In this document: positions 1-13,908 of the stretch, in pieces
Position numbering within the stretch: position 1 is the first letter of the stretch
Layout: every line of letters begins with the position of its first letter
IMG/VR virus record: IMGVR_UViG_2541047932_000008
Source of the DNA: a virus
Lineage: Duplodnaviria; Heunggongvirae; Uroviricota; Caudoviricetes
Length of the DNA: 14,110 nt
Reading direction: 5' to 3' (one strand)
Translations under genes and position numbers: made by a program
The notes under the pieces: model-generated
The model's input: the letters and a program-made list of their open reading frames with translations, nothing else
Database searches by the model: none
What the model was told of the DNA's origin: nothing

Positions 1-1116
1 ACGATCCGGAATAATGCTCCTGCGCGCCCATGAACTGAAATGTGTCGGGCGGTTTGATGATACCTGGTTTCCATTCGTTCTCGATGCCGCACCGTAATAT
101 CCTGATGCCGGAATATCCGGATCTTCTGCCGGCGCGTTAGTGGCGGTATTGACGCCGTTACCGTCTGTCATGAAGGGTACAAAATAAACGCCATCACTCT
201 CCCTGTTTTTGTACGCCCCGTAAATGGTGTTGTACTGCGTGCCGTAGGTGTTTTTCCAGTAATACGTCGTGTCACCACAAATCCACGGCACATTTACAGC
301 ACTGCCACCATGACACTGCGCGTTAAACACAGTGAGGTCAGCACGAAACTGCTTCAGCATGGCTGTAAACAGCGCAGGTTGCTGTGCATAGGTGGCGGCG
401 CTCATGTCAAACTCTCCCTGCATCCAGCACACCGCCAGCAACACATTTTTCGGGTTCTTCTGTAATGCAGCTTTAGTGCGCGCAATCAGGTCCTGATATA
501 ACGGTTTACCCACACCCCAGCGTGCCGAATCCTGGCTGGCCCCCGTGTCCGCACTGAATGTCCCCTCCGCGCCCTGGGTGAATGCCGAACCACCACGACA
601 GCATGGTACCAGCAGGATCCCCGCGTTATTCGGGATATACGGGAGCAGTTTTTTGGCAATATGTAAGCCCTGGCCGACACAGCCGTACTGCCCTTTGCTC
701 AGGTCTGCCTTCGGATGATTCAGCGTACTCATATCCTGCACATCATGCAGACAGTGGTCAGCCGGGATGATGTCGTTATACGTACAACTCTCTCCACCCG
801 GAGTTACCGTGCTGCGGCGCGCCAGCTGTTTAATGCGCGGATCCGGAGCATCGTAAGAATCCGGTAACGGAAGCCCTTCACCGTAGGCCATGCCGTTGGA
901 CTGTCCGGCAAGCACAACCACGTAGAACCAGTCCGGCTCAGATGAAGGGCCGACCTGTGGATCTCCTTCAATAGCCACCGCCTGCATCAGTGTGTACGGC
1001 GTAATGGCAACCGGTCCGCCATATGGCTGCCAGCCCTCTTTCAGTTTGTGTGTCAGCTTTTCCGCAAGGTCTGACGGCGACGCCGCCCTGACCACATCGT
1101 AGTGTTTAAATACCAT
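1..1116 (-). CDS. nanS: Prophage sialate O-acetylesterase NanS-p-like, N-terminal 372 codons; C-terminal part lies beyond the window edge
   Basis: ATG at 1116-1114 (minus) opens a frame that stays open to position 1. Translation begins MVFKHYDVVRAASPSDLAEKL (DUF1737-like N-terminus) and contains FYVVVLAGQSNGMAYGEGLP, the GQSN block of SASA/SGNH esterases. Not in the ORF track because it has no stop inside the window. Confidence 0.8.
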   Translation of the reverse strand, partial: MVFKHYDVVRAASPSDLAEKLTHKLKEGWQPYGGPVAITPYTLMQAVAIEGDPQVGPSSEPDWFYVVVLAGQSNGMAYGEGLPLPDSYDAPDPRIKQLARRSTVTPGGESCTYNDIIPADHCLHDVQDMSTLNHPKADLSKGQYGCVGQGLHIAKKLLPYIPNNAGILLVPCCRGGSAFTQGAEGTFSADTGASQDSARWGVGKPLYQDLIARTKAALQKNPKNVLLAVCWMQGEFDMSAATYAQQPALFTAMLKQFRADLTVFNAQCHGGSAVNVPWICGDTTYYWKNTYGTQYNTIYGAYKNRESDGVYFVPFMTDGNGVNTATNAPAEDPDIPASGYYGAASRTNGNQVSSNRPTHFSSWARRSIIPDR

Positions 1117-2204
1117 GACCTTTTCCACCATATAAAGGAACAATAAATTCTTTTCTGATAGAGATTTAAATAAAAATACATTATTTTACAAAAAATAATA
1201 TCCATTACAAAAACATCCGATTTTTTTATATTCCCGCTCATCCTGCTAATTTGTATTACAAAAAATAAAACAACTTGAACCAAAGTGATACAAAATTAGA
1301 AAAGAAAACCCCAGGAAGACAAAGAAAACGATCTTTATCAATGAGTTACACTGATTTATTGACTATGATTTTTAGCAAAACAATCGAAAGCAATGTGTAC
1401 CGAGAAGGTTAAAAGATGGAATGGATAGTTATTGACACAGTGATATGCCCATCAAGCGGAATAACGTTTTCAACTGTATGGTGTAAAATAAAGTTGATAA
1501 TCTGGTATCAGTCAGATGTGTTCCTGCCACCCGGAAGTATTCTCACACCTGTTAACTCAGGTGTGATTATGGATAATAAGCTGCTTCCATTAACCATTTA
1601 CAACGTGACACCATTTAACAGAAAATTCTGGTTCCTTATCAGAAATCAAAAAGAGTGCCCCGGGAATTCAGTTAAAACAAAAATAAAATGCCATAATAGT
1701 ATGTGTGTACTGATGATATGCCCGTATGGATTATATAAGTAACAACATATGAATACATAACAGATAAACTATTGACCTTGAGGCTCATCCATATAAAGAA
1801 GAGCTCTCCGAAGAGGTGTGTATTTGCATGCACATTCCTTTTTCGCTCTATGTCATGACCTCCGGCGACTCTATCCCGGCACCAGCAAACCCGCATCATT
1901 CTCGTTTCCGGTGTCTCTAAAACCACAGCACACCTGCCCCCCGCTGAGGGAGGGAAGCACTGTATCCGTACACTCAGCAACAGAAATACCACCCGCTCAC
2001 TGCGCTACATATCAGCAACAATTTTATACCCGAACATTATCATTCAACAGCATGGTTCACAACAACATCATAACCCAGGAAACGAGAATCAGATCAAAAA
2101 AACAGAAATTTTACATGAAAAATACTGTTTATTAATATTGATAGCGTCGTACCACAAAATACGATGAATTATCCCTGAACTTAACATTAATGCCAGTATG
2201 TATT

Positions 2205-2224
2205 GCCCGCTGGTATCAGCGGGC
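2205..2224. other. GC-rich stem-loop (8-bp stem GCCCGCTG/CAGCGGGC, loop GTAT) about 110 bp beyond the methyltransferase stop
   Basis: Perfect inverted repeat at 2205-2212 and 2217-2224. Followed on the plus strand by GCTTTAAG (short T-run) and on the minus strand by AATACATAC, so terminator function is uncertain on either strand. Confidence 0.3.
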
Positions 2225-2335
2225 GCTTTAAGAGATCGTATTCATGACTACCTGGGAAAAAGCTATTTTACTATTGTCAGTTTTTATTGCAGCCTTATCT
2301 GTCTACTTGCTTCACAGCCTGAACTGACCATATCT

Positions 2336-3412
2336 TTATCCATCCTTCCCGTCATCAATTGAGCATGTAAGGATGTGACTAATCTCCTTAACGGTCTGCG
2401 CAAAACGTTCTGCCTCCAGTTCAACACCAGTTGCACGACGCCCGAGCGCCATAGCTGCTTTTATGGTTGAGCCAGAACCCATGAAAAAATCCGCCACCAG
2501 GTCACCCGGACGACTGCTCGCGCAGATTATCTGCCGCAGCATTTCTGCCGGTTTTTCGCACGGATGTTTCCCTGGATAGTACTGCACCGGTTTATGCGTC
2601 CACACATCGGTGTACGGCACCTGCACCGTCACACCGAAATACCGCCGCAAATTTTTATATTCACTCAGCAGTTCCATATACTGCCGGTTCAGCTCACTGT
2701 ATGTGCTGACCAGTTGGTAATGGGACTTTTCCAGTTCTCCCCGCTGATGTTTCTCTTCTGCCACCCGGGCAAACAGCGACTGTAATTTCAGATAATCGCT
2801 TTCGTTCGGTAGCTGCCACTGACTGGCACTGAACCAGTGCGACACCATGTTTTTCTTTCCTGTGGCATCTGCAATCTGTTTTGCCGTTATCCCAAGAGCA
2901 GCACGCGCATCACGAAAGTAAGAAATCAGCGGGGCCATCACATGCTGTTTCAGTGCCCTGCCCTTCGCCTCATCGCCATCATCTTTCGGACGATACGGCC
3001 CCTGATAATGTTCCGCGAACAGAATGCGTTCTGTGGCCGGAAAATACGCCCGCAGGCTTTCCTTGTTGCACCCGTTCCAGCGTCCGGACGGCTTCGCCCA
3101 GATAATATGGTTCAGCACACTGAAGCGTTCACGCATCATGATTTCGATATCAGATGCCAGGCGATGACCACAGAACAGGTAAAGACTTCCGGCAGGTTTC
3201 AGCACCCGCCAGAACTGCGCCAGACACTGGTCCAGCCACTTCAGGTAATCATCGTCGCCCTTCCACTGGTTATCCCAGCCCTCAGGCTTCACTTTAAAGT
3301 ACGGCGGGTCCGTGACTATCAGGTCAACAGAATTTTCGGGTAACGACCGGATAAATTCCAGGCAATCAGCGTTGATTAACTTACAACTGGATATTTTTAC
3401 AGTATTAAGCAT
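2336..3412 (-). CDS. Orphan DNA N6-adenine methyltransferase, beta-class (motif IV before motif I)
   Basis: 358-aa ORF. DLIVTDPPY (catalytic DPPY motif) near the N-terminus and DLVADFFMGSGSTIKAAMALGRRATGVE (FxGxG AdoMet-binding motif) near the C-terminus. No adjacent restriction endonuclease ORF. Confidence 0.88.
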   Translation of the reverse strand: MLNTVKISSCKLINADCLEFIRSLPENSVDLIVTDPPYFKVKPEGWDNQWKGDDDYLKWLDQCLAQFWRVLKPAGSLYLFCGHRLASDIEIMMRERFSVLNHIIWAKPSGRWNGCNKESLRAYFPATERILFAEHYQGPYRPKDDGDEAKGRALKQHVMAPLISYFRDARAALGITAKQIADATGKKNMVSHWFSASQWQLPNESDYLKLQSLFARVAEEKHQRGELEKSHYQLVSTYSELNRQYMELLSEYKNLRRYFGVTVQVPYTDVWTHKPVQYYPGKHPCEKPAEMLRQIICASSRPGDLVADFFMGSGSTIKAAMALGRRATGVELEAERFAQTVKEISHILTCSIDDGKDG

Positions 3413-3547
3413 GGATCATTAAGCCTGTCTCTGATAGGCTCATTCTGCTTTTGCGCAAAGCAGTGGGCCTGAGGTTTGCTTGTGAACCCAACGCATGAGC
3501 AGATGGCTGGTGGGTGCCCCTAACACCCACCAGCCGCCCATTTACCA

Positions 3548-3576
3548 CAAATAAAAAAGCCTTCACTGCGGAAGGC
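3548..3576 (-). terminator. Rho-independent terminator after the small ORF
   Basis: Minus strand reads GCCTTC-CGCAGT-GAAGGC (plus 3559-3576) followed by TTTTTTATTT. The TGA stop of the small ORF lies in the loop. Confidence 0.7.
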
Positions 3577-3760
3577 GTCTGTAACAACCGAACTGATAGT
3601 CTGCCAGACCCGCCATAACCAGCTGAGTCAGTATTAACTGGCAGCGTTCGCGTGAAAGGTAAGTATTCTGCGCTATCTCCCCGACTGTCGCCGGTTCGGT
3701 AACGCTTAATTCATTAAACACCACTCTGGCGGTTTCTGTCATATCCTGCTGTTTTAGCAT
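3563..3760 (-). CDS. Small hypothetical protein (65 aa) with helix-turn-helix-like segment
   Basis: ATG at 3760 preceded by AAGGGAAAAAGA. Product MLKQQDMTETARVVFNELSVTEPATVGEIAQNTYLSRERCQLILTQLVMAGLADYQFGCYRRLPQ. The ORF track's 106-aa version starts upstream with no ribosome-binding site. Confidence 0.5.
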   Translation of the reverse strand: MLKQQDMTETARVVFNELSVTEPATVGEIAQNTYLSRERCQLILTQLVMAGLADYQFGCYRRLPQ

Positions 3761-3883
3761 GTCTTTTTCCCTTTTCCGGTTAACGTGACACACCAATAAC
3801 TCTTGTCGAAAAAGCCAGCAAGCTGAAAGAACGGTATTAATAACCACCAGCGAATTTATTGCGCTACTGTATATTGCGGACAC

Positions 3884-3906
3884 AAAAAAACCACCTTCCG
3901 GTGGCT
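3884..3906 (-). terminator. tR'-like intrinsic terminator about 200 nt downstream of the Q-like gene
   Basis: Minus strand reads AGCCACC-GGAA-GGTGGTT followed by a T7 run (plus 3884-3890 is A7). Unidirectional. Confidence 0.55.
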
Positions 3907-4030
3907 TCCTTGTGCGAAAAAAACTTGCGTTTCGCCTCGCGATACAGCTTTGCGAAGCTTATACGGATTGAAGCAGTTTATTGATCAGTTTGCAACATTT
4001 TTCTCTGTAACAAAAGCCATGCGCATGGGG

Positions 4031-4066
4031 GCATATAACATAAATTCAGATACCCCCAACCATTGA
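4031..4066 (-). promoter_or_regulatory. Candidate late promoter (pR'-like) with possible Q-utilisation region
   Basis: Minus strand reads TTGATCAATGGTTGGGGGTATCTGAATTTATGTTATATGC, containing an extended -10-like TGtTATATg with TTGGGG/TTGATC as possible -35. Lies 35-70 nt downstream of the Q stop and upstream of the tR'-like terminator. Sequence reading only. Confidence 0.3.
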
Positions 4067-4099
4067 TCAATTCGGCGTCTGCACGTAACCAACGACCAA

Positions 4100-4537
4100 T
4101 CAGGATGATCTGCATTTAACCTTTCGGCCATTTTCAGTTTGCTCATTCCCCCGTCCTTCGTACCTTTGCCGGAGAACATTGATTAGCCCGGGATATTCCC
4201 CAAGCACCTCACTGATAACGCGATCAATAATCAACGCCTCTGTGTCTGTACAATGTGACAACCAGCTCTTCTGCTTTCCTCTTGTCATATCCCGAAAAAA
4301 TGCCTCAAGTTCCGGTTTTTCCAGCCCGGATTTCTTCATTCTGCGTAAAACCTCATTAACTGCTGTTTTCGTCAGCTTTTTCGAAACCAGTAACCGGTTA
4401 AACATATTTCCGGATTTACCCCCACCGATATACGACCACCGCCCCCACATCCGTAATTTCCCCTGGATCCAGACTGCTTCCAGCGTGTTCAGGCGTAAAT
4501 GTTCGCCGCTTTTGCCTGTAATTTCCGGATATATCAT
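4100..4537 (-). CDS. Putative late antiterminator Q-like protein (about 145 aa)
   Basis: ATG at 4537 (the ORF track's 4549 start is GTG). Sits immediately after rusA and before the promoter/terminator module and cargo genes, the canonical Q position. The family assignment rests on position and size only. Confidence 0.55.
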   Translation of the reverse strand: MIYPEITGKSGEHLRLNTLEAVWIQGKLRMWGRWSYIGGGKSGNMFNRLLVSKKLTKTAVNEVLRRMKKSGLEKPELEAFFRDMTRGKQKSWLSHCTDTEALIIDRVISEVLGEYPGLINVLRQRYEGRGNEQTENGRKVKCRSS

Positions 4538-4545
4538 ATTTACGC

Positions 4546-4905
4546 TCACTCACTCTCAATTTTGTAAATCTTCACACCCAGCCGTCCACCAGATACTGGC
4601 TGACCACGTACAATATTGATTTCATCAAACTGCTCGTCATCAATGAGCACTCCCGCATGCGTCAGCGCATCCAGCGGTGCTTTCAGAATGTTGTCCAGGT
4701 CGCGACGACGCTTATCCGGTGGCTCTGCAATCACCTTTATCGCCAGCCTTCCGGACAGGCTTAATTTCAGCCGCTGCTGGCGAACAATAAGCGCCACAGC
4801 CCGGCGATAACGCTCACCGGCTTTTGATACAAAATATGTGCTGCCACGACGTCGCCAGTAGGTGTTCACCGTCGGCGGGTAAGGCAAAACAAACTCTATG
4901 AGCAT
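4546..4905 (-). CDS. rusA: Holliday junction resolvase RusA
   Basis: 119 aa with the RusA catalytic block PPDKRRRDLDNILKAPLDALTHAGVLIDDEQ. RBS AAGAGGTGA before ATG 4905. Stop is 8 nt upstream of the Q-like start. Confidence 0.9.
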   Translation of the reverse strand: MLIEFVLPYPPTVNTYWRRRGSTYFVSKAGERYRRAVALIVRQQRLKLSLSGRLAIKVIAEPPDKRRRDLDNILKAPLDALTHAGVLIDDEQFDEINIVRGQPVSGGRLGVKIYKIESE

Positions 4906-4917
4906 CAGTCACCTCTT

Positions 4918-5967
4918 TTACCCGAGCACGCCAGTCGCAAAGGCGTGATCAAGAAAACGAAAAATTAAATCAACCTGGGAACCATGCTTTTCTTCGAACG
5001 CCAGCGGATCCGCATGAAGCTCGTTGTGATGCTCCCGACACAGCGGTAGCGTGAAAATATCGTGGGATTTTGTTCCCATTCCACCCTGACCATGACCAAT
5101 CAGATGATGAGGATCGTCCGCTGGCTTACCACAACACGCACACGGCTGTGTCTTTACCCAGCGTGTGTATTTCTCATTTACCCAGCGGCGACGTTTAGGT
5201 CGTTTCATGAAGGATTCCGGAGACTCCGGATCAACGGCAATGCTGACCACCGTCTTTTCCTGTGGTGGGTTCTGTTGCTGGTGGGTGTGAGGCGGTAGCG
5301 CAATATTTTTTGTGCGCTGCTTCAGTATGCTGGTGGCGGTCTGTTCTCCCGGTATGATGTCGCTTTCACGGTATACGGAGCGGATTTTTTCCGCCGGTAA
5401 TCCCAGAGAACGACGCGCTACTGCCTCAGGTAGTGCATCCACCACCTGATTGCAGGCCGCCCACCAGGATAATTCGGCCAGCGATAACTCCCTCTCCTGC
5501 GTGCCGCTTATTGCGTGACGGATGACGTCAATCATCCAGGCAACCAGATTCTGCTGAGCAAGTTGATCGAGTGATTCTGATGTCTGGTCGCGCAGCTGGT
5601 TGTCACAGTGCCAGCACAACACCATCGCGCCGGTACCGTAACGGTGAATGACTGTTTCGCTGTGATGATAATCGCCGTGTGGCCACTGGCAGGATTTCAC
5701 GTGACGTAATAACCAGTCAGACAGTGCGCCAGCGCCGCCAGCAGCACGAATCACACGCTCATCGCTGAAAAATGGCAGTAATGATTTATCCTCCGCCAGC
5801 GGCTGGCGAACGGCAGGGACGACTCCGGACGGCAGACCGCGCATGCTTTTCGGTTCAGACTCCACCAGCACCCTGTCGCCATGAAATACCCGCATGGATT
5901 CACGGCTTGGCTTAACGATAACCACCCCGAGTTCCGGTACCAGAACAGGTCGAAGTAATACCCGCAC
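4918..5967 (-). CDS. YdfU-like / DUF968-type prophage protein with two Cys/His clusters
   Basis: 349 aa, GTG start at 5967 preceded by TGGAGGTAAC. Contains CQWPHGDYHH...CWHCDNQ and C-terminal CACCGKPADDPHHLIGHG...CREHHNELH (HNH/zinc-binding-like). Position between small nin-like genes and rusA-Q mirrors ydfU in the Qin prophage. Confidence 0.75.
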   Translation of the reverse strand: MRVLLRPVLVPELGVVIVKPSRESMRVFHGDRVLVESEPKSMRGLPSGVVPAVRQPLAEDKSLLPFFSDERVIRAAGGAGALSDWLLRHVKSCQWPHGDYHHSETVIHRYGTGAMVLCWHCDNQLRDQTSESLDQLAQQNLVAWMIDVIRHAISGTQERELSLAELSWWAACNQVVDALPEAVARRSLGLPAEKIRSVYRESDIIPGEQTATSILKQRTKNIALPPHTHQQQNPPQEKTVVSIAVDPESPESFMKRPKRRRWVNEKYTRWVKTQPCACCGKPADDPHHLIGHGQGGMGTKSHDIFTLPLCREHHNELHADPLAFEEKHGSQVDLIFRFLDHAFATGVLG

Positions 5968-5968
5968 G

Positions 5969-6247
5969 TTACCTCCAGATGCGCTGGCAATAACTGACTG
6001 GTGTACGTGGCTGATGATTTGATACAGGTAATGTCACCGAAACAAACCACGTCCTGCCGTCAGGGTTGAGTTGCTTTATTATTGTGTATCCGCGACGACC
6101 GTATAACTCTTCAAGTTCCCCGAGTTCATGCGTCGTACAGTCCGGATAGTAGAAAGGGTGTTTTTCAGATACGGAAAATCGCCGTCCGTGCCTGCTGGCA
6201 GGGTCGACTGAATTATTGGGATTATGACGTTTGGTATAATGCACCAC
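5969..6247 (-). CDS. Hypothetical protein (92 aa, GTG start)
   Basis: ORF-track frame. GTG at 6247 preceded by ACGAGGG. Its TAA stop sits inside the RBS of the next gene. No recognisable motif. Confidence 0.4.
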   Translation of the reverse strand: MVHYTKRHNPNNSVDPASRHGRRFSVSEKHPFYYPDCTTHELGELEELYGRRGYTIIKQLNPDGRTWFVSVTLPVSNHQPRTPVSYCQRIWR

Positions 6248-6307
6248 TACAACCCTCGTAATGGTGCGACAGGAGCCAGTTGTTCAGGCTGGCTTCACCA
6301 GTATAAT

Positions 6308-6475
6308 TTAGTCTTCTTTAATACAGAAGTGGCTGACAGAATCCATGTGAGATTCTTTAGTGATCAGAATGGCGTCGGGTGGTAACGGCATTACAATAAA
6401 CTCTCCATTTGCAAGGGTTATCACCTCATAACTACCCGGTACAGAAAGCGCAGCAATTAATTCCTTATCATTCAT
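6308..6475 (-). CDS. Hypothetical small protein (55 aa), absent from the ORF track
   Basis: Translated by hand: ATG at 6475 gives MNDKELIAALSVPGSYEVITLANGEFIVMPLPPDAILITKESHMDSVSHFCIKED with TAA at 6310-6308. AGGG lies 8 nt upstream of the ATG. Confidence 0.4.
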   Translation of the reverse strand: MNDKELIAALSVPGSYEVITLANGEFIVMPLPPDAILITKESHMDSVSHFCIKED

Positions 6476-6592
6476 AACAAAACCCTATGAACTTTTAACA
6501 TTTCCCCTTAAGGGGTCCATCCCTCTTCTCCCTGCGCGCTACTTAAGTATTTTTGATTCTATTCCGGCACCTTCAAAAAGCTCAAACGTCTT

Positions 6593-6627
6593 GAAAATAA
6601 ACAACAAAAAACCCGCCGAAGCGGGTT
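6593..6627 (-). terminator. Rho-independent terminator ending the hok transcript
   Basis: Minus strand reads AACCCGC-TTCG-GCGGGTT followed by TTTTTTGTTGTTTATTTT. Unidirectional: the plus strand has an A-run before the stem. Confidence 0.7.
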
Positions 6628-6695
6628 AAGTGCGGGTGCGTTGAGGATGCCTGACACATCAGAGGTGGCGAGGGATTTCTCCCCCGCCAGGTCTC

Positions 6696-6851
6696 TTACT
6701 CCTCAGGTTCGTAAGCTGTGAAGACAGCGACCTCCGTCTGGCCGGTTCGGATTCGTACCTCGCAGAGGTCTTTCCTCGTTACCAGTGCCGTCACAATGAC
6801 GGTTAAACAGATGACGATCAGGGCGATTAGCATCGCCTTTTGCTGCTTCAT
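6696..6851 (-). CDS. hokD: Hok/Gef-family type I toxin (HokD/RelF-like, 51 aa)
   Basis: MKQQKAMLIALIVICLTVIVTALVTRKDLCEVRIRTGQTEVAVFTAYEPEE, which matches HokD as I recall it. SD AAGGAG 7 nt before ATG 6851. The ORF track's 70-aa version (from 6908) is an in-frame upstream extension. Confidence 0.85.
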   Translation of the reverse strand: MKQQKAMLIALIVICLTVIVTALVTRKDLCEVRIRTGQTEVAVFTAYEPEE

Positions 6852-7026
6852 AGCCTGCTTCTCCTTGCCTTTCGGCACGTAAGAGGCTAACCTACGTGTG
6901 TAGAGCATAGATATGGCCTCAGATTAATGTTAAGCGTCTTGCCGGACGCGTAATGTTAACTGGGGCTTTTCTCTATCTGCCGTTGGTGTTCATGCCCGAG
7001 GCAGATAGCCTCAAGCACCCGCAGCA

Positions 7027-7054
7027 ATTCTACTTAACTCTCCTTTTCCCGCAA
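7027..7054 (-). promoter_or_regulatory. Candidate promoter of the hok mRNA
   Basis: Minus strand: TTGCGG (7054-7049), 16-nt spacer, TAGAAT (7032-7027). The predicted start near 7020 gives a leader of about 170 nt, as in hok mRNAs. Confidence 0.4.
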
Positions 7055-7141
7055 ACCGTTTTTATCTCCAGCGACAAATCGAATACACAACCAGCACCAC
7101 CGCCATTACTGTTCCTGCATTTGCGAATGCTTCAGGCCAGG

Positions 7142-7537
7142 TCATTGATTCACCTTCTGCTCAATATTTTTAAGGTCATTTTCCGCATACAGTATTGCAG
7201 TTCTTGCTGCCCGCAACCGTGCTTTGGTGTTCTTTTCTTCACGCTCGAGGCTGGCAACAGATTCTCGGAGCTGATCGCGTCTGTTATGAAGCTGTCTAAT
7301 CTCTCTCACCACAGCCTCACCATCGTTCGCACACCGCAGAACATACTGAAAAGGGTCCACAACACATCCGCACTGCAAGCACAGGATAACGCGATCCTGT
7401 TCATGAACCTCAATGGCCCGATGCTTACAGCTCTGTTGTGTGTAGTTTTTTCTGCCAGTTACTGTAATGTTCAGCAGCTTCTCTTCATCGCGCTTTGGCT
7501 GCACCCGTGTGATGATATTATCGCCTTCATTTTCCAT
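7142..7537 (-). CDS. Hypothetical protein (131 aa) with Cys cluster and coiled-coil C-terminus
   Basis: Start chosen at ATG 7537: AGGAGGTGA lies 5 nt upstream and the ATG shares one base with the TGA of the upstream gene (TGATG). The ORF track's 7612 start lacks an RBS. Contains CKH...CLQCGC. Confidence 0.7.
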   Translation of the reverse strand: MENEGDNIITRVQPKRDEEKLLNITVTGRKNYTQQSCKHRAIEVHEQDRVILCLQCGCVVDPFQYVLRCANDGEAVVREIRQLHNRRDQLRESVASLEREEKNTKARLRAARTAILYAENDLKNIEQKVNQ

Positions 7538-8127
7538 CAGTTCACCTCCTGCGGCGGTTCTGGTAGCGGCATCCAGTGTGACGGTTTCCACGACGCACCA
7601 GGAATTATCCACCCATCATTAGCGTCAGGATGCCCCGGGATGTAAGTCGCCCACTTCATTCGCCAGTCACCTTTCCTGTCAAACTCCACGGCAACAAGAA
7701 CGGCTGTTTTGGTATCCGGCATTCGCTCACTACAGCTTATCCAACCATCCGGAGTTACCGGAGAGTTGCCAGACAGCGCATTCTGCAACCGTTCCAGCTT
7801 AACGTATTCCTGAACCCTGTTTCCGTCGCACGCCTGAAGCCATTGCTCAGCCTTTTGCGCATCTGTGTGAAAGGCACAAGTGCGACCGTCATCAAATTGC
7901 ATTTCGTAGAGGTTAGCAATCTGTTCAAACTGCGTGTGTGGAAACTTGTGAGTTTGGCTTACAGGTTCGGCTTCCAGCGATGCCAGTGCAATTTTAAATG
8001 CGGTAAGTATGTTGTTAACCTCACCTATTTCGAATGCTATTTCACTACATACAAACGATTTATCGTCTATTATCGACTCAATTCCGGGAATCGTGTTCTG
8101 TAGCCATTCTTTGGTTAATTCAGCCAT
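7537..8127 (-). CDS. DUF551 domain protein
   Basis: 196 aa. C-terminal DGWISCSERMPD...SHWMPLPEPPQ is the DUF551 hallmark seen in lambdoid nin regions. Confidence 0.8.
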   Translation of the reverse strand: MAELTKEWLQNTIPGIESIIDDKSFVCSEIAFEIGEVNNILTAFKIALASLEAEPVSQTHKFPHTQFEQIANLYEMQFDDGRTCAFHTDAQKAEQWLQACDGNRVQEYVKLERLQNALSGNSPVTPDGWISCSERMPDTKTAVLVAVEFDRKGDWRMKWATYIPGHPDANDGWIIPGASWKPSHWMPLPEPPQEVN

Positions 8128-8253
8128 TCTTCACTACCGCCCTTTCTGGCGGCCTCCTGATGTTCTGAGGGTGCAGGGATCTCTCCGGTTAAGGATTTAA
8201 TAAAAATCATTTCTGATTTAAATTTTCAGTGTTTAGTTGTTGGTTTATAGCCT

Positions 8254-8565
8254 TTATGCTTCGGCCTTATTTCTCAGCCATACACAAACAGGACCATCTT
8301 CGGTGTCATGTATCGAACCGATAAACCATCCCTCACCTTCTGGTCGCTCAGGTTCCCATGCTGAAATATCAGGGCCATCTGCGTCCAGATTAAAATCATC
8401 TTCATCCATACTACGGATACCCCACTGAAGATTATTTTTCTCCATCCAGGCGTTAAACTCTTCCGTTGAAATATATTCCCGACCATCACAGAATTTTTCA
8501 TATTCAGGATGCGTCCAGCAGCCATATTCATTACGTTCCACTGGCATTTCTTTAATTGCGCTCAT
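8254..8565 (-). CDS. Hypothetical acidic protein (103 aa)
   Basis: ORF-track frame. Start ATG overlaps the stop of the upstream 63-aa gene (ATGA). No motif recognised. Confidence 0.7.
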   Translation of the reverse strand: MSAIKEMPVERNEYGCWTHPEYEKFCDGREYISTEEFNAWMEKNNLQWGIRSMDEDDFNLDADGPDISAWEPERPEGEGWFIGSIHDTEDGPVCVWLRNKAEA

Positions 8566-8753
8566 TTACCACCTCCCTTATTTAATTTTCTACGACACTT
8601 TTTACAATCATCTGGACTTTCGAATGTATCCGGCTCACGCTCATTGCCAAAATACATCCACCCACCGCAAGTACTTGTTATTTCACCTTCAGCAAAATAA
8701 TGATGCTTTTTCGCCATAAGTGGCCTTGCCCAGCCCGGATTCGTTTTACTCAC
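8562..8753 (-). CDS. Hypothetical small Cys-containing protein (63 aa)
   Basis: ATGA overlap with both neighbours. Contains STCGGW...DDCKKCRRK, a possible zinc-ribbon. Confidence 0.6.
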   Translation of the reverse strand: MSKTNPGWARPLMAKKHHYFAEGEITSTCGGWMYFGNEREPDTFESPDDCKKCRRKLNKGGGK

Positions 8754-9394
8754 TTGTTGCCTCCTTTGCGAAGCTCTGCGACTAACTCGTCACATATGTG
8801 CGTCAAAGAGCAAAGTTTGATTGATGGGTGTTCGCGCATCATCTCAACCCCCTGCGCCCGCACTTCAGCCAGGAAAGCATCGGTGGCTGGCGTTTCCCGT
8901 GAAAGGTAAGACCAAACAATGTCGTCTGTTTCACTGGGTTCTTCATGAGAGCAATTTGGGCAGACAGCAATACAACCAGCATGATCTTCTATGAGCATCT
9001 TCAGCCACGAGTTCTCCTCCGCCAGCGTCACGCGACTGGCCTCCAGTTCTGCTACGCGCTGTTTTGCAGCATCCAGTTCAATCGACAATTTTTCCAACTG
9101 CTCTTTATGCTTTTTATATTCCTGATATGCGTGCCAAGACTGACCTTTGCGCACACTATCAGTAATATCAGTAATCTGTTCTGGTGTTAGCGTGGTCAGT
9201 GGCTGTGCTGGAAAAATCATCACTTTCCCGGCATCCCAATCAAAACCCGCCCGAACTGACTGAACCTCAACTGATGGTGTTGAACCGATGCGACCAGGAG
9301 AATGAACAACGATCGTTACATCCATATCGCGATGATGGCTGTGGTTGTTGGACAAAATGCGATTCACCAACTCAGAAAATTTGGAAAATTTCAT
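8750..9394 (-). CDS. Coiled-coil protein, tentatively Ead/Ea22-like
   Basis: 214 aa. RBS AAAGGAGAA 6 nt before ATG 9394. Central heptad-like segment KEQLEKLSIELDAAKQRVAELEASRVTLAEENSWLKML and a CPNCSHEE motif. Family name is tentative. Confidence 0.65.
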   Translation of the reverse strand: MKFSKFSELVNRILSNNHSHHRDMDVTIVVHSPGRIGSTPSVEVQSVRAGFDWDAGKVMIFPAQPLTTLTPEQITDITDSVRKGQSWHAYQEYKKHKEQLEKLSIELDAAKQRVAELEASRVTLAEENSWLKMLIEDHAGCIAVCPNCSHEEPSETDDIVWSYLSRETPATDAFLAEVRAQGVEMMREHPSIKLCSLTHICDELVAELRKGGNK

Positions 9395-9681
9395 GCTGAT
9401 TCTCCTTTCTCTGCTCTCTCCTGTCGGAACATCACTATCATCAGGTCACCTTTTGTCGCTATCCTGGCTGTTGTGCCAGGCTCAATGCGGCTAAGTTCAA
9501 ATGCGTCATAGAACGCCTCTAACGCTTTCTGGCGTCTCTCCTGTTTGCGCCGTTTTTTCCACTGTTTTAGAAAAATGGAACCAAGCCATCACCATGCACG
9601 GGACATGATGTAAAGCCAACCGAGAAGTGCCAGACCGGTATTTAGGGCCGTATCGATCGTTATCGTGGTGTCGATATTCAC
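9391..9681 (-). pseudogene. Small membrane-protein gene interrupted by an in-frame TGA (codon 31 of 96)
   Basis: One frame runs from GTG 9681-9679 (AGGAGG 7 nt upstream, overlapping the TAG of the upstream gene) to a TGA at 9393-9391 that overlaps the ATG of the next gene. It is broken only by TGA at 9591-9589 (...MSRAW*WLGSIFLKQWKKRRKQ...). Confidence 0.35.
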
Positions 9682-10073
9682 TACGCCACCTCCTGAAGTT
9701 TCCCCTGATAAAACGCCAGCACGCGCTGCATAACTTCACTATTCCGGCACTCGCAACAGATTATGTTCAGGCGTCTGTCGTAGCGGCGTATTTCTCCGTC
9801 TGGTAACTTTCGAATCAATGTCTGGTCAGTTGTTTTCTCCGGTGTCTTACGCCATACGCGATACACCTGTTCTGATGTAAAAACACCGTATTTACCGGGC
9901 ATGTATAAATCGCCACAAGCCAGTACATCCACAAGGCAACGTCTGACTGAATGCCAGCCTGCTCCCGTCGCTCTCTCCAGTTGTGATATCGTCATGCGTT
10001 CATTTTTGCGTACCAGCCCGATAATTCGGGCCTTCAGTTCTTCACGCTGTTCGTGTGTAAAAGGTTTCGCCAT
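9681..10073 (-). CDS. Hypothetical protein (130 aa), possible winged-helix DNA-binding protein
   Basis: ATG 10073 with GGAGG 6 nt upstream. Begins MAKPFTHEQREELKARIIGLVRKNERMTISQLERATG. Not assigned to a family. Confidence 0.7.
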   Translation of the reverse strand: MAKPFTHEQREELKARIIGLVRKNERMTISQLERATGAGWHSVRRCLVDVLACGDLYMPGKYGVFTSEQVYRVWRKTPEKTTDQTLIRKLPDGEIRRYDRRLNIICCECRNSEVMQRVLAFYQGKLQEVA

Positions 10074-10088
10074 AAGCGCCTCCGGCTA

Positions 10089-10814
10089 TCACTTTTCCGA
10101 CACAATACGACCGGATGAATCGACAATCTGCCGAACAATATCCCAGTGCTTGTTCAACTCCCGCAGCGCGGCGCAGACTCGCTCCCACTTCTGAACCTGA
10201 CCTTTTGCTCGGCGCAGCTCGCGGTTAGCCACATGCAGCGATGGTAAAATCAGACCATCCGGATGCTTTCTGGTGAACGACGGCTGTGACTGCACTGTGA
10301 CCGCCACACTTTCCGTTTTTATTTCTTCCTGTGTTTCCGCTTCCCCGACTGGTAACGCAACACCTGCTGGCTGAGGAAAGGCTTTACCATCCGTTTCCGC
10401 TATGGATGCGGCTTTCGGCTCTGCCGGTAAATCAGCGCCCGGTATGCAGTACCGAAATTTACCGCCCTGATTCACGCGAATCAGACGCCCTTTGCTGATT
10501 GCCATGGCCAGTGATGAATTCGCCCGGCGGGAGGTAATCCCGAACATCAGTGCCAGCTCATCCGCCGTTTGTGGGCCATGATGTTCAATCGCCTCAGTCA
10601 GCATTTGCGCTGTCACTTTCGGTACCGGTGACACTGGTTCACTTTCACCAGCCTGAATCAGCCACCACATCGAACCCTTGTTATCCGCTTCACCACGGCG
10701 CTTCAGTTTCCACAGTTCGTTGACAGCATCTTCGCGGCTGATTCCAAGGCGCGATGCCACTACCTGTGAAGAGGCTTTTTTCAGTGCTTTCAGTGCGTCA
10801 AATACAGTTTCCAT
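10089..10814 (-). CDS. Hypothetical protein (241 aa)
   Basis: Start placed at ATG 10814 ([11 protein letters not shown]...) with TGGAGGAC upstream. The ORF track's 10832 start is TTG. Confidence 0.7.
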
Positions 10815-10835
10815 TAAAACGTCCTCCAACAAAAA

Positions 10836-11582
10836 TTACTTCACAACCCTCTGATTGCTGACATTTGGACGCCAGCTATCCCAGTTAAACGTCACCCACC
10901 GACCACCGTTCATGGTCATGCGGTCCATAATCCTCTCACCAAGAAGCGTGCTCATTGCGGCATGATTCAGGTTTGTTAACATCCCGACACTGCACAGTGA
11001 TGCTGTCCGGCGATCAATTATCTGGTGCAATACCACCTGCTCGTTTTTCGTCTCCCGCTGAACGCCTATTTCATCCAGGACCAGCAAATCAACACTGCAA
11101 AGCTCCTGTAAAAATTTTTCCCCGGATTTGCCGTTGTCGTAGCTGTCATGCAACACGCTCATGACATCAGACACGGTGACGATAATCACGCTGCGCCCCT
11201 TCGCCATCAGCCGGTTACCCATCGCCGCTGCAAGGTGATTTTTCCCGGTGCCGGTTTTACCGCTGAACACAAAATTCGTGCACCCGGTCATCAGTTCGTC
11301 AGCTATGGATTTGGCCTGGCTCAGCGCGTATTTTTGCCCGTCGTTCTGCACCTGATAATTCGCAAACGAGCATTTGCTGTGCAGAGGCTGGATGCCCGAA
11401 CGATTCAGGATTTTTTCCACCCGCAACTGGTGATTCTGGCGGTTAATCTCCTCGCTGCGTTTTCGTCCTTCAGCAAGTTGCCATTCCCGCCACTCCTCCA
11501 CCGTCCGGTACGGTGGAACCGACGCCTGTGGTGCAAGTCTGCGAATACGTTCAAGAACCCCGGCTGCCGCAATGTTTTTCAT
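10836..11582 (-). CDS. DnaC-like replicative helicase loader (AAA+ ATPase)
   Basis: 248 aa. Walker A FSGKTGTGKNHLAAA and Walker B DLLVLDEIG; C-terminal VTFNWDSWR resembles E. coli DnaC. Confidence 0.9.
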   Translation of the reverse strand: MKNIAAAGVLERIRRLAPQASVPPYRTVEEWREWQLAEGRKRSEEINRQNHQLRVEKILNRSGIQPLHSKCSFANYQVQNDGQKYALSQAKSIADELMTGCTNFVFSGKTGTGKNHLAAAMGNRLMAKGRSVIIVTVSDVMSVLHDSYDNGKSGEKFLQELCSVDLLVLDEIGVQRETKNEQVVLHQIIDRRTASLCSVGMLTNLNHAAMSTLLGERIMDRMTMNGGRWVTFNWDSWRPNVSNQRVVK

Positions 11583-11588
11583 GCCACA

Positions 11589-12659
11589 TCACCCCCTGAA
11601 TCCCGGCGGAATTTCGGTATCCGGTTCAGAAATATGATTCACACAACGCTGGTTGTTCGTGCCGCTTACCGGGAGCAACCAGGAGTTTTCAAAATTCCGG
11701 TCCGGCCCAAAAAACGTCGTCGCTCGCTGAACAAATTCCGTTCCCGCTTTCCCGGTCGCCGCCAGGTATCTCGCGTAACGCCTCACACCATCCAGCATGG
11801 TCTCTGGTGGCACCCCCTCGCGCAATCTGGCCTTCCAGGCACTGAAAGCGGATTTCTTCGGGTTTGCCCCGGCACGCAACGGGTATTCCCGCCAGACCTG
11901 TTCGAACACATCCGGATAATCCACTCGTCCCACAGACTGCCCGGTGCTTTCCGGGACTACCCGATCGGCTTCCCGCTGAATGGCGGAATCGGCTTCAGGC
12001 TGCTGCAGTTGGTGTGATTGCTCCGGCCTTGCGGTCATCACCTGCTGCACAGCGCCCGAATCGGCTTTCAGCGCATACGCTGAATCGGCTTCCGGTGTCG
12101 TGCCTGCTGGCTGACCAGGATTGACGGTCTGAACATCCCCTGCCTGGTTCGTGGCGTTTTTTACGCCATGGACCATAGTGTTTTGATCTTCTTGATCTGT
12201 ATCTTTATCTGTATCTTTATCTGTCGTGACTCGTCGTGACATGTGCGTGACATTTCGTGACGCGCCGTGACAATCGCCATTTTGTTCCCGCTTTCTTTCC
12301 CTCTCTCGCTGCGCCCTCTTGCGCTCTGCAGGAGATTTTGCGGTTTGCGAAATATTGCCGTTGTCCTCTTTCAGCACCTGGCGTTTTTCCCATCCAGTGA
12401 TTAAATCACCATCAAGTACCCGCCCCTGCATCGTCTGCAAAATTGAATCAATTACCTCTTCTGTCACGTCGAGCGCACTTGCCAAATCTTCTGTCGTGAC
12501 ATCAATGTGACCTCGCGTGACATTTCGTGACGCGCTCACCAGGAGGTGGATATACACTGCCATCACTGTTGCAATTGGCTGCCCTGACACCCTGGCAATT
12601 GTTCGCCACTTAGGGTCATTTGGCATGTCATGCCATAATCTGAGCCAGGCGTTAGCCAT
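11589..12659 (-). CDS. Replication initiator / replisome-organiser protein (O-like; DnaT-like C-terminal region)
   Basis: Start placed at ATG 12659 (MANAWLRLWHDMPNDPKW...) with AAGAGGTGA upstream; the ORF track's 12665 start is GTG. Sits directly upstream of the DnaC-like gene and contains two iteron clusters in its coding sequence. Confidence 0.8.
   Translation of the reverse strand: MANAWLRLWHDMPNDPKWRTIARVSGQPIATVMAVYIHLLVSASRNVTRGHIDVTTEDLASALDVTEEVIDSILQTMQGRVLDGDLITGWEKRQVLKEDNGNISQTAKSPAERKRAQRERERKREQNGDCHGASRNVTHMSRRVTTDKDTDKDTDQEDQNTMVHGVKNATNQAGDVQTVNPGQPAGTTPEADSAYALKADSGAVQQVMTARPEQSHQLQQPEADSAIQREADRVVPESTGQSVGRVDYPDVFEQVWREYPLRAGANPKKSAFSAWKARLREGVPPETMLDGVRRYARYLAATGKAGTEFVQRATTFFGPDRNFENSWLLPVSGTNNQRCVNHISEPDTEIPPGFRG
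12221..12271. repeat. Iteron cluster 1: five direct CGTGAC repeats at 10-11 bp spacing, next to an AT-rich tandem repeat (candidate origin)
   Basis: CGTGAC at 12225, 12235, 12246, 12256 and 12266. Flanked at 12192-12220 by (TCTGTATCTTTA) x2.4. Shares the 21-mer GCGTGACATTTCGTGACGCGC with cluster 2. Confidence 0.5.
12491..12531. repeat. Iteron cluster 2: four CGTGAC/TGTGAC repeats at 10-11 bp spacing
   Basis: Repeats at 12495, 12506, 12516 and 12526. Includes the same 21-mer as cluster 1. An inverted GTCACG copy lies at 12463-12468. Confidence 0.5.
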
Positions 12660-12730
12660 ACTCACCTCTTCTGATACCGAATCATTTTACTCACGAGTTG
12701 CCGGAAGCGATTCGATATGGCTATTGTCAG

Positions 12731-13156
12731 TCAATGTACTGCCACAGCATTTCCTGCCGGGCCACCACGGTTCATCTGATTGAAACCGGCGATTGCCACT
12801 GCGACAAAATCATCAGCGTCTCTCACCAGTCGCTCCCGCGTCTCCACCAGCTCCCGAAAATAAGCTGAACTGTGGCTGCGCATTCTGGCCACCAGCAAAG
12901 GTGGCATTGCCTTTTCGATCGCTGGTAACAACGCCTGAATTTTTTCAACTGCATCAGGGGTGTCTTTCTCTACCCAGCGGAAAATTTTCTGTGTATTGCG
13001 AGCCAGGGCTTCCGGATGGCTGTCGTCATACAGTTCAGGAAACGTCATACCCAACTCAAAATAAGCCTGGGTTATTCCAGCTGCTGGAACTTTTTCGCCA
13101 TCAGGACGCGCCCAGGCATTCATCGCCATGCGGATGTGTTCATGCTTGATTTTCAT
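12731..13156 (-). CDS. YdaT-like protein (CII-position gene of Rac-type immunity regions)
   Basis: 141 aa, MKIKHEHIRMAMNAWARPDG.... GGAG lies 8 nt before ATG 13156. The start overlaps the 3' end of the Cro-like gene by 17 nt. Confidence 0.7.
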   Translation of the reverse strand: MKIKHEHIRMAMNAWARPDGEKVPAAGITQAYFELGMTFPELYDDSHPEALARNTQKIFRWVEKDTPDAVEKIQALLPAIEKAMPPLLVARMRSHSSAYFRELVETRERLVRDADDFVAVAIAGFNQMNRGGPAGNAVAVH

Positions 13157-13415
13157 GAATCAACTCCGGTGTATTTGGTGTGTTAGCCTTATCTCCAGCA
13201 GGCAACCCGTCAGTTGGATTCGGGTATAAATCTGGTCGCAATTCATGAGGAGTAACCCCAGTTGCAATATAAATTTGACGAACCCGTTCTCCCGTCGGCA
13301 CTCGACCATTGTATTCATTTGCCCATTTGTGTATTTGAGATGGCCAAGCCCCTATTGCACGCCCTAGCGGACGAATACCACCAGCAATCTTTATTGCTTT
13401 GTCCAATGCTGTCAT
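13140..13415 (-). CDS. Cro-like / YdaS-like small HTH regulator
   Basis: 91 aa, MTALDKAIKIAGGIRPLGRAIGAWPSQIHKWANE.... GGAGG lies 5 nt before ATG 13415. Divergent from the repressor gene. Confidence 0.75.
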   Translation of the reverse strand: MTALDKAIKIAGGIRPLGRAIGAWPSQIHKWANEYNGRVPTGERVRQIYIATGVTPHELRPDLYPNPTDGLPAGDKANTPNTPELIHENQA

Positions 13416-13518: not shown

Positions 13519-13908
13519 ATGGACATGAGAAAAAAGCAATACGACACCCCGCTAGCAGAAAGGTTAGATACGATCTCTCAACAGCATCATTTAAGTGGTT
13601 CAGATTTAGCGCGTATCGCTGGTGTAGGTCGTTCATCAGTCAACGCATGGAAAAAAAGAGGAACAATCAGTAAAGATTCCGCAGCCAAAATTGCAGAAGC
13701 CACAAACGTTTCCCTTTCTTGGCTACTGACAGGGAAAGAAGAGACAAATAGAGAGGCGCTTGATGATGACGAGAAGGCCCTGCTTGATGTTTACAGAAAC
13801 CTGCCACCTGTAGAACGTAGAAATATGCTGGCAGCTTTTCAAATGCGACTCCAAAAACTGACCGAATTTTACTCAGAATACGTCGACCCAATAACACGAC
13901 AAAAATAA
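13519..13908 (+). CDS. Prophage repressor, XRE-family HTH, no peptidase domain
   Basis: 129 aa. HTH segment LSGSDLARIAGVGRSSVNAWKKRGTISKDSAAKIAEATNVSLSWLLTG. No Ser/Lys peptidase motifs, and too short for a LexA-like C-terminal domain. Confidence 0.85.
   Translation: MDMRKKQYDTPLAERLDTISQQHHLSGSDLARIAGVGRSSVNAWKKRGTISKDSAAKIAEATNVSLSWLLTGKEETNREALDDDEKALLDVYRNLPPVERRNMLAAFQMRLQKLTEFYSEYVDPITRQK

Follow-up and report, generated by a model that had tools for sequence, protein, structure and literature searches.

A lambdoid Escherichia coli prophage carries an intact hok/mok/sok type I toxin-antitoxin module (hokD/hokW subtype) in its nin region

The region between positions 6,593 and 7,054 of the window (the whole 14,110-nt stretch of Caudoviricetes DNA analyzed here, IMG/VR record IMGVR_UViG_2541047932_000008) almost certainly encodes a canonical type I toxin-antitoxin module, hok/mok/sok of the hokD/hokW subtype, and forms part of the nin region of a lambdoid E. 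coli prophage. A sequence-only reading of the same DNA had recognized a type I toxin locus of the hok type whose mRNA architecture is complete, which our analysis fully supports, but had found no convincing plus-strand antisense promoter or terminator and hence no identifiable Sok RNA, which is wrong: a promoter at 6865-6893 and a hairpin at 6915-6967 followed by UUUU are both present. They are base-for-base identical to those of the validated sokW gene of Sakai prophage 5 (Sp5), and the companion suggestion that regulation of the toxin is open at this locus is unsupported.

The hok toxin gene (6696..6851, minus strand) starts at an ATG at 6851, preceded by the Shine-Dalgarno (SD) sequence AAGGAG (6866-6861), and encodes a 51-aa product that is 100% identical to K-12 HokD (RelF) by tblastn and matches the Pfam HOK_GEF profile (PF01848) with 82.9 bits against a cut-off of 22, all of profile positions 1-42 of 42 being covered; the earlier designation as a 51-aa Hok/HokD-type toxin thus stands. 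The same protein is named WP_000813254.1 "toxin HokD" by RefSeq in a 99.8%-identical record, and HokD is listed among the toxic control peptides in a recent survey. In frame with hok lies the 70-aa mok reading frame (6696..6908, minus strand; ATG at 6908-6906), previously noted as a 19-codon in-frame upstream extension, whose SD (GAGG, 6920-6917) and start codon both fall inside the region complementary to Sok (6900-6970); its layout is that of the annotated, homologous mokC and mokW. The toxin coding sequence also carries, at Hok codon Tyr47 (UAC) within CUUACGAA (window ~6706-6713, minus strand), a UACGAA that is invariant in 27/27 aligned loci. UACGAA is the TadA A-to-I editing motif, reported for hokB with Tyr-to-Cys recoding, and such editing is extended to hokC/D/E in the introduction of bioRxiv 10.1101/2025.08.07.668861. 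As the local fold around the invariant UACG contains no tRNA-like hairpin, we do not claim a TadA substrate structure here.

Transcription of the toxin message is assigned to a promoter at 7027..7054 (minus strand), with a -35 box TTGCGG (7054-7049), a 16-nt spacer and a -10 box TAGAAT (7032-7027), exactly as read earlier from the sequence. The element is identical to the Sp5 hokW promoter, and a TAnAAT-like -10 box stands 6-7 nt upstream of a conserved GGG(U/C)GC start in all 31 homologous loci inspected, with the sequence farther upstream varying freely. The predicted +1, G7020, lies seven bases past the -10 box and coincides with the beginning of the Rfam RF01794 match; the resulting full-length mok-hok mRNA (6604..7020, minus strand, 417 nt) ends at the terminator, has a minimum free energy (MFE) of -175.4 kcal/mol (z -6.9) and aligns end to end with 26 homologs. 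Its leader, which runs from G7020 up to the hok ATG at 6851, measures 169 nt, close to the roughly 170 nt first estimated, and contains a 5' hairpin (6973..7008, minus strand) whose 9-bp stem is formed by CUAUCUGCC (7008-7000) and GGCAGAUAG (6981-6973), again in line with the initial description. A second, long leader hairpin (6916..6966, minus strand) mirrors the Sok hairpin on the sense strand and constitutes the Sok target region; in the MFE fold its GCCCCAG, a ucb-like anti-SD sequence, sequesters the mok SD. Within the 3' UTR, a GC-rich stem-loop, GGCGGGGGAGAAAUCCCUCGCC (6667..6688, minus strand), appears in both the full-length and the 3'-truncated folds and is conserved in the alignment; by analogy with R1, it may serve as the protective 3' hairpin of the processed mRNA. 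The transcript ends in the expected intrinsic terminator (6600..6627, minus strand), AACCCGC-UUCG-GCGGGUU plus a U-run, with its stem at 6627-6610 followed by the T-run in the DNA and with a sequence identical to that in K-12 hokD.

The long-range fold-back characteristic of such messages is likewise present. In the MFE structure of the 417-nt transcript, nucleotides 1-12, GGGUGCUUGAGG, pair with CCUCAA-C-GCACCC (6646-6634) just upstream of the terminator. In the nomenclature of PMC9841398 the two partners are the tac element at the mRNA 5' end (7009..7020, minus strand) and the fbi element, CCUCAACGCACCC (6634..6646, minus strand). Counted from G7020, their duplex has 6+6 bp and a single bulged C; extension to T7023 makes it 9+6 bp, so that the 6+8 bp of 5'/3' complementarity reported by the sequence-only reading was approximately right. 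Taken in the window alone, the duplex is only modestly above chance, with 2/200 shuffled 3' UTRs equaling it (z -2.7). For conservation, 53 loci encoding HokD relatives were fetched from Escherichia, Shigella, Kluyvera, Pseudocitrobacter, Citrobacter, Pantoea, Photorhabdus and Erwinia, and a conservation set of 27 loci was formed from the 26 with an intact leader plus the window, representing six or more genera. The complementarity recurs at the same position in 27/27 of these homologous loci, the best partner of the 5' end lying 45-56 nt past the stop codon in every one, and the duplex carries compensatory changes (U-A to C-G and G-C to A-U): in Kluyvera ...GAGA is matched by UCUC..., and in Photorhabdus GGGCGC... 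faces ...GCGCCC in a perfect 12-bp helix. Because Photorhabdus is without the bulged C, half of the tac/fbi helix shows apparent mispairs that are in fact a one-column register shift. On a MAFFT whole-mRNA alignment, pairs were counted jointly over three helices, that of tac/fbi and those of the 5' and the long leader hairpins: 91.6% are paired as compared with 36-45% when the partners are slid by 1-3 columns, and 13 pairs have changed on both sides; none of 500 shuffles matches the observed values on 4/5 measures, the count of further pair types being the same as in the shuffles. Across the 27 loci the 5' hairpin has 95.5% of its cells paired, with 3 pairs changed on both sides; for the long leader hairpin the figures are 90.4% and 6. 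Together, these data demonstrate that the tac/fbi pairing is real.

The Sok antisense gene lies on the plus strand within the region just described. Its promoter (6865..6893) consists of a -35 box TTGCCT (6865-6870), a 17-nt spacer and a -10 box TAACCT (6888-6893), is the sole such match in the window and is 30/30 identical both to oligonucleotide YO-597 and to the Sp5 sequence, while matching the sigma-70 consensus at 7/12 positions. The predicted 71-nt Sok RNA (6900..6970, plus strand; start at G6900), whose coordinates were moved without indels from the annotated sokW misc_RNA (AP000422 60019..60089), is composed of a 15-nt single-stranded 5' tail (6900-6914) that covers the mok AUG, a long, imperfect 53-nt hairpin (6915-6967) that covers the mok SD, and a UUUU U-tract (6967-6970). 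The Sok strand folds at -28.6 kcal/mol (z -5.4), better than the opposite strand (-17.8, z -2.9), as expected if G-U pairs have been selected on the Sok strand. Conservation follows the same elements in the 27-locus set: the -35 box reads TTG(A)CCT in 27/27 loci and the -10 box TAAYCT in 19/27, the spacer ends in GUAAGAGGC in 26/27, the base of the hairpin shows compensatory changes (A-U/G-C, G-C/A-U), GGGGCUUU is invariant in the hairpin consensus, and the anti-AUG "GCAU" of the tail is kept in 26/27.

A toxin locus devoid of Sok, controlled by mRNA folding alone or by an unknown factor, is accordingly highly improbable. What speaks for it is that RefSeq annotates only the hokD CDS at the locus in a near-identical record and that a simple consensus scan of 6450-7200 returned just the hok terminator and two irrelevant promoter-like sites, with no sigma-70-like promoter or simple terminator on the plus strand between 6850 and 6980. 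The scan, however, missed the hok as well as the Sok promoter because each hexamer has only 3-4 of 6 matches, and it missed the Sok terminator because of the long imperfect stem; since characterized Sok promoters are themselves non-consensus, such scans miss them generally, and for this locus the result is uninformative. Against a Sok-less toxin stand the Sok promoter layout, which is kept in the 27 loci and in an R1-type IncF plasmid locus, the markedly better fold of the plus strand, the strong Rfam match described below and the earlier detection of an antisense RNA from the identical promoter and hairpin in Sp5 (PMC8621323). The identity of promoter, start and hairpin-terminator to validated sokW, base for base, led us to reject it. 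A literature search for "sokD" gave unrelated matches only.

A covariance-model search, which the sequence-only reading had proposed as a check, places the locus firmly in the family: RF01794 "sok" is the only Rfam match in the window (7020-6846, minus strand; 111.7 bits, E 3e-25), spanning the full model (1-157) at nearly twice the gathering score of 59. It is important to note how this match is to be read. At K-12 sokC, K-12 sokB, VT2-Sakai sokW and the IncF plasmid locus, RF01794 likewise matches the hok-sense strand, each time bracketing a Sok annotated on the opposite strand, which indicates that the model represents the hok leader and that Sok is its reverse complement. The "sok antitoxin" entry runs to the hok AUG over 150-175 nt, as opposed to 57-71 nt for the Sok RNA itself; being built on the hok-sense strand, it thus misreports both the strand and the extent of the antitoxin gene.

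The experimentally studied hokW-mokW-sokW locus of Sp5 in VT2-Sakai (AP000422 59815..60089; PMC8621323) is a near-identical relative. Sequence identity between the two is complete over one stretch that starts at the hok promoter, takes in tac, the 5' hairpin and the Sok hairpin/terminator and reaches the mok SD, and over a second one comprising the Sok promoter with the SD and start of hok; they have in common a 71-nt Sok, an in-frame 70-aa mok, the fbi sequence and a small upstream ORF. Seven of the oligonucleotides used by Takada et al. match the window at 100%: YO-349, YO-350, YO-351 (50/50), YO-406, YO-432 in the upstream ORF, YO-541, and YO-597, which spans the Sok -35 to -10. Differences are found in the Sok 5' tail and mok start, where 6/30 probe positions deviate and probe YO-592 matches at 24/30, a change that leaves Sok-target complementarity intact because both RNAs are made from the same DNA; in the Hok C terminus (...FTAYEPEE in the window, ...FVDYESEK in HokW); in the 3' UTR, with substitutions in its hairpin and a different sequence downstream of fbi, at the terminator; and in phage position, the window locus lying in the nin region of the early-right operon, whereas hokW is absent from the VT2-Sakai nin region and left arm and found near attR. 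Takada et al. (2021, PMC8621323) showed that HokW halts growth and that sokW neutralizes it from its own promoter; that mutation of the sokW -10 box ("pro-less", oligonucleotide YO-421) abolishes protection and yields toxicity, which sokW in trans remedies; that hokW and sokW RNAs are both detected on northern blots; that sokW disappears upon mitomycin C treatment in a RecA-dependent manner; and that deletion of hokW-sokW delays lysis and halves phage yield. Near attR, inside the right end of Sp5 (AP000422 ~62.8 kb; positions 32762-32850, minus strand, of our record L007), we also observe an sRNA-Xcc1 match (RF02221, 69.1 bits), which is unrelated to the hok locus.

Comparison with K-12 is equally informative. 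The hokD (relF) gene of cryptic prophage Qin encodes a 100% identical toxin, is 95.8% identical over CDS, 3' UTR, fbi and terminator, and has the same type of downstream neighborhood (rem/ydfU/rusA in related phages), but shares nothing with the window upstream of 6865: in K-12, relBE stands where the window has the hok promoter and, in the leader, tac, the hairpins and the start of mok, along with Sok and the larger part of its promoter. The window thus holds the intact form, and the relBE-hokD locus of Qin is a truncated, rearranged derivative. The genes directly upstream of hok here are phage ORFs (DUF551, a 156-aa ORF and a 27-aa ORF), bearing out the earlier remark that relBE is missing, unlike in Qin; a K-12-type relBEF arrangement, with relB-relE adjoining hokD in place of leader and Sok, is not found, and full leader and Sok are present; the absence of relBE marks the intact form. 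The chromosomal hokC/mokC/sokC (gef) locus of K-12 displays the same architecture, with an in-frame mok, a toxin of 82% identity, an identical tac and an annotated sokC at the homologous position and strand; it differs in its DNA (~75% identity), in a shorter hairpin within a 59-nt sokC, in not being prophage-borne and in its disruption downstream by IS186. With hok/mok/sok (parB) of plasmid R1 and its IncF relatives the window shares tac/fbi, the anti-SD hairpin, the GCCUCUUA box and the Rfam family, and the R1-type IncF plasmids carry their Sok promoter (TTGCCT-17-TATCCT) in the same place. In the plasmid type, however, mok is out of frame with hok, the 5' hairpin of the leader has an extra insertion, and the module sits on a plasmid, where it acts in post-segregational killing; the published 44% identity to R1 Hok is a figure for HokW, not for the HokD of the window (PMC8621323).

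Positions 1-13161 of the window match, at 99.8% identity and in the opposite orientation, a prophage of E. coli O39:NM F8704-2, and the identity ends abruptly at 13161, the ydaT/ydaS junction, which is a typical lambdoid mosaic boundary. In the immunity region the window carries a YdaS-type Cro (13140-13415, minus strand) and a CI-type HTH repressor (13519-13908, plus strand), and the O39 prophage carries Cro/CI and a LexA-family repressor at the same place. From the divergent cI-like gene onward, the minus-strand order runs through ydaS, ydaT, the replisome organizer and helicase-loader genes, DUF1627, DUF977, DUF551 and the 156-aa ORF to hok/sok, followed by DUF968, RusA, a Q-like DUF1133 gene and a DNA methyltransferase; the site is the nin region of a lambdoid phage, within the early-right operon, and hok occupies the same nin slot in mEp460, PPompW/Stx2_14040 and vB_EcoS-689R5. 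The small ORF next to hok is unannotated, with 27 codons (7062-7145, minus strand) specifying a hydrophobic peptide, MTWPEAFANAGTVMAVVLVVYSICRWR, that has no Pfam match. Its ATG overlaps the stop codon of the 156-aa ORF (ATGA), it ends 8 nt before the hok -35 box, and its conservation stands at 100% for the O39 prophage, 96% for L027 and 77% for L009/L014, the AP000422 copy being apparently frameshifted; possibly, it is a small membrane protein coupled to the upstream gene.

A 521-nt version of the locus is present in 4728/5426 complete E. coli genomes, at a median of 2 and a maximum of 11 copies, and in 102 phage records, where it goes by the labels hokD, MokW, gef and host killer; hok is enriched in prophages, according to a 2025-26 survey. 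Near-identical E. coli-type hokD also occurs in very short contigs assigned to the unrelated genera Acinetobacter (A. idrijaensis, L022, 275 nt) and Xanthomonas (X. pisi, L027, 431 nt), and a further match at 96.7% DNA identity in Actinobacillus phage vB_Apl-pPE4 (H26). These three most likely reflect contamination or mis-assignment and not true host range.

The sequence elements, their conservation and covariation and their identity to validated loci are direct observations. As regards 3' processing, the refolding that makes the mRNA translatable, its cleavage by RNase III, the instability of Sok and what triggers the system, we draw on R1, whose canonical mechanism is described in PMC9841398, and on the Sp5 work, and propose the following by analogy. 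A weak constitutive promoter would yield a stable hok mRNA of ~415 nt which, with tac locked to fbi and the mok ribosome-binding site buried, would be neither translated nor bound by Sok. Slow exonucleolytic trimming from the 3' end would remove fbi and let the leader refold, making mok translatable and hok with it through translational coupling. Meanwhile, the convergent promoter within the mok/hok leader would supply the unstable 71-nt Sok, whose tail and hairpin would pair with the mok SD and start codon to block translation of mok and hence of hok, in a duplex expected to be an RNase III substrate. Should Sok synthesis stop, through loss of the element or through prophage induction as for hokW-sokW, the stored hok mRNA would be translated and the 51-aa peptide would harm the inner membrane. 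When fbi is removed in silico, tac is freed and re-pairs locally (nt 1-29) with the segment immediately downstream, not in the textbook tac/ucb form; the modeled pairing resembles the metastable hairpin. Since the truncated MFE structure is not the "open" tac/ucb form, we make no claim on the activating refold.

What such a module does for its carrier is less certain. In the accounts given by a citing paper, the chromosomal hokA, hokB and hokC loci showed no post-segregational killing and no activation by rifampicin (Pedersen & Gerdes 1999), and these reports leave the physiological output uncertain. They also speak for an intact yet physiologically silent locus, a selfish or decaying prophage passenger that is never activated, as proposed for hokA/hokB/hokC; so do the many disrupted copies in E. 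coli, exemplified by K-12 hokD, truncated at 6865, and the IS186-flanked K-12 hokC, and the frameshifted hok genes of L048 and L052. Yet all regulatory elements of the window are intact and under evident purifying or compensatory constraint, and the near-identical Sp5 locus is active and alters lysis timing and phage yield, which makes a silent passenger quite unlikely. Alternatively, the same module may act mainly in abortive-infection defense or in prophage retention by post-segregational killing, and not as an aid to lysis after induction. We consider this possible, though the less probable course: R1 hok/sok on a high-copy plasmid lowered T4 plating, as related by citing papers, whereas a section heading of the survey states that hok is not enriched near defense systems, and the sole direct experiment on a near-identical prophage locus points to a lysis and phage-release role after induction (PMC8621323).

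In all five phage contexts inspected (the window, L061, L062, L063 and L007) hok is co-oriented with an antiterminated phage early operon, that of pR in the window, mEp460, PPompW and 689R5 and that of pL, after circularization, in Sp5; the stretch separating the hok promoter from the upstream ORFs has no predicted terminator (window 7020-7200, minus strand). Speculatively, this co-orientation suggests silencing of the Sok promoter by read-through upon induction: antiterminated transcription would meet the convergent Sok promoter head-on, and the resulting transcriptional interference would silence Sok, which would then decay. A separate variation marks the Sok 5' tail, which corresponds to the first mok codons on the other strand (6900-6916, plus strand) and varies more than any other part of the leader. 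In the tail, pairwise identity averages 0.67, as against 0.95 in the Sok hairpin and 0.90 in the Sok promoter, with the 3' UTR also variable at 0.74, and GCAU opposite the mok AUG is the only conserved part of the tail. Paralogs within one genome, compared for L009/L017 and L012/L014/L018 (Escherichia/Shigella) and for Photorhabdus L037-L051, hence in two unrelated genera, are 96-100% identical in hairpin and promoter and 61-82% in the tail, which could be diversification against cross-talk between copies or mere relaxed constraint. We tentatively put forward, as an unlikely proposal, that the prophage module may be an induction sensor rather than a plasmid-style addiction system and, separately, that the Sok tails of paralogs may keep the copies orthogonal.

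The locus is of an ordinary kind, already known and already characterized: its type was described decades ago, its subtype has been studied experimentally and it sits in most E. coli genomes, so that it amounts to little as a discovery, and the claim that had made it interesting, the absence of Sok, is the one that was wrong. Its value lies elsewhere. The case illustrates that Sok genes are easily overlooked by eye, by consensus promoter and terminator scans and by RefSeq annotation, and that an Rfam "sok" match on the hok-sense strand can mislead as to where the antitoxin is located. The window furthermore preserves the ancestral, intact state from which the rearranged relBE-hokD locus of K-12 derives. 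If true, read-through from the early operon would account for the unexplained RecA- and induction-dependent disappearance of sokW, and the variable Sok tail would let as many as 11 copies coexist in one genome as mutually orthogonal systems.
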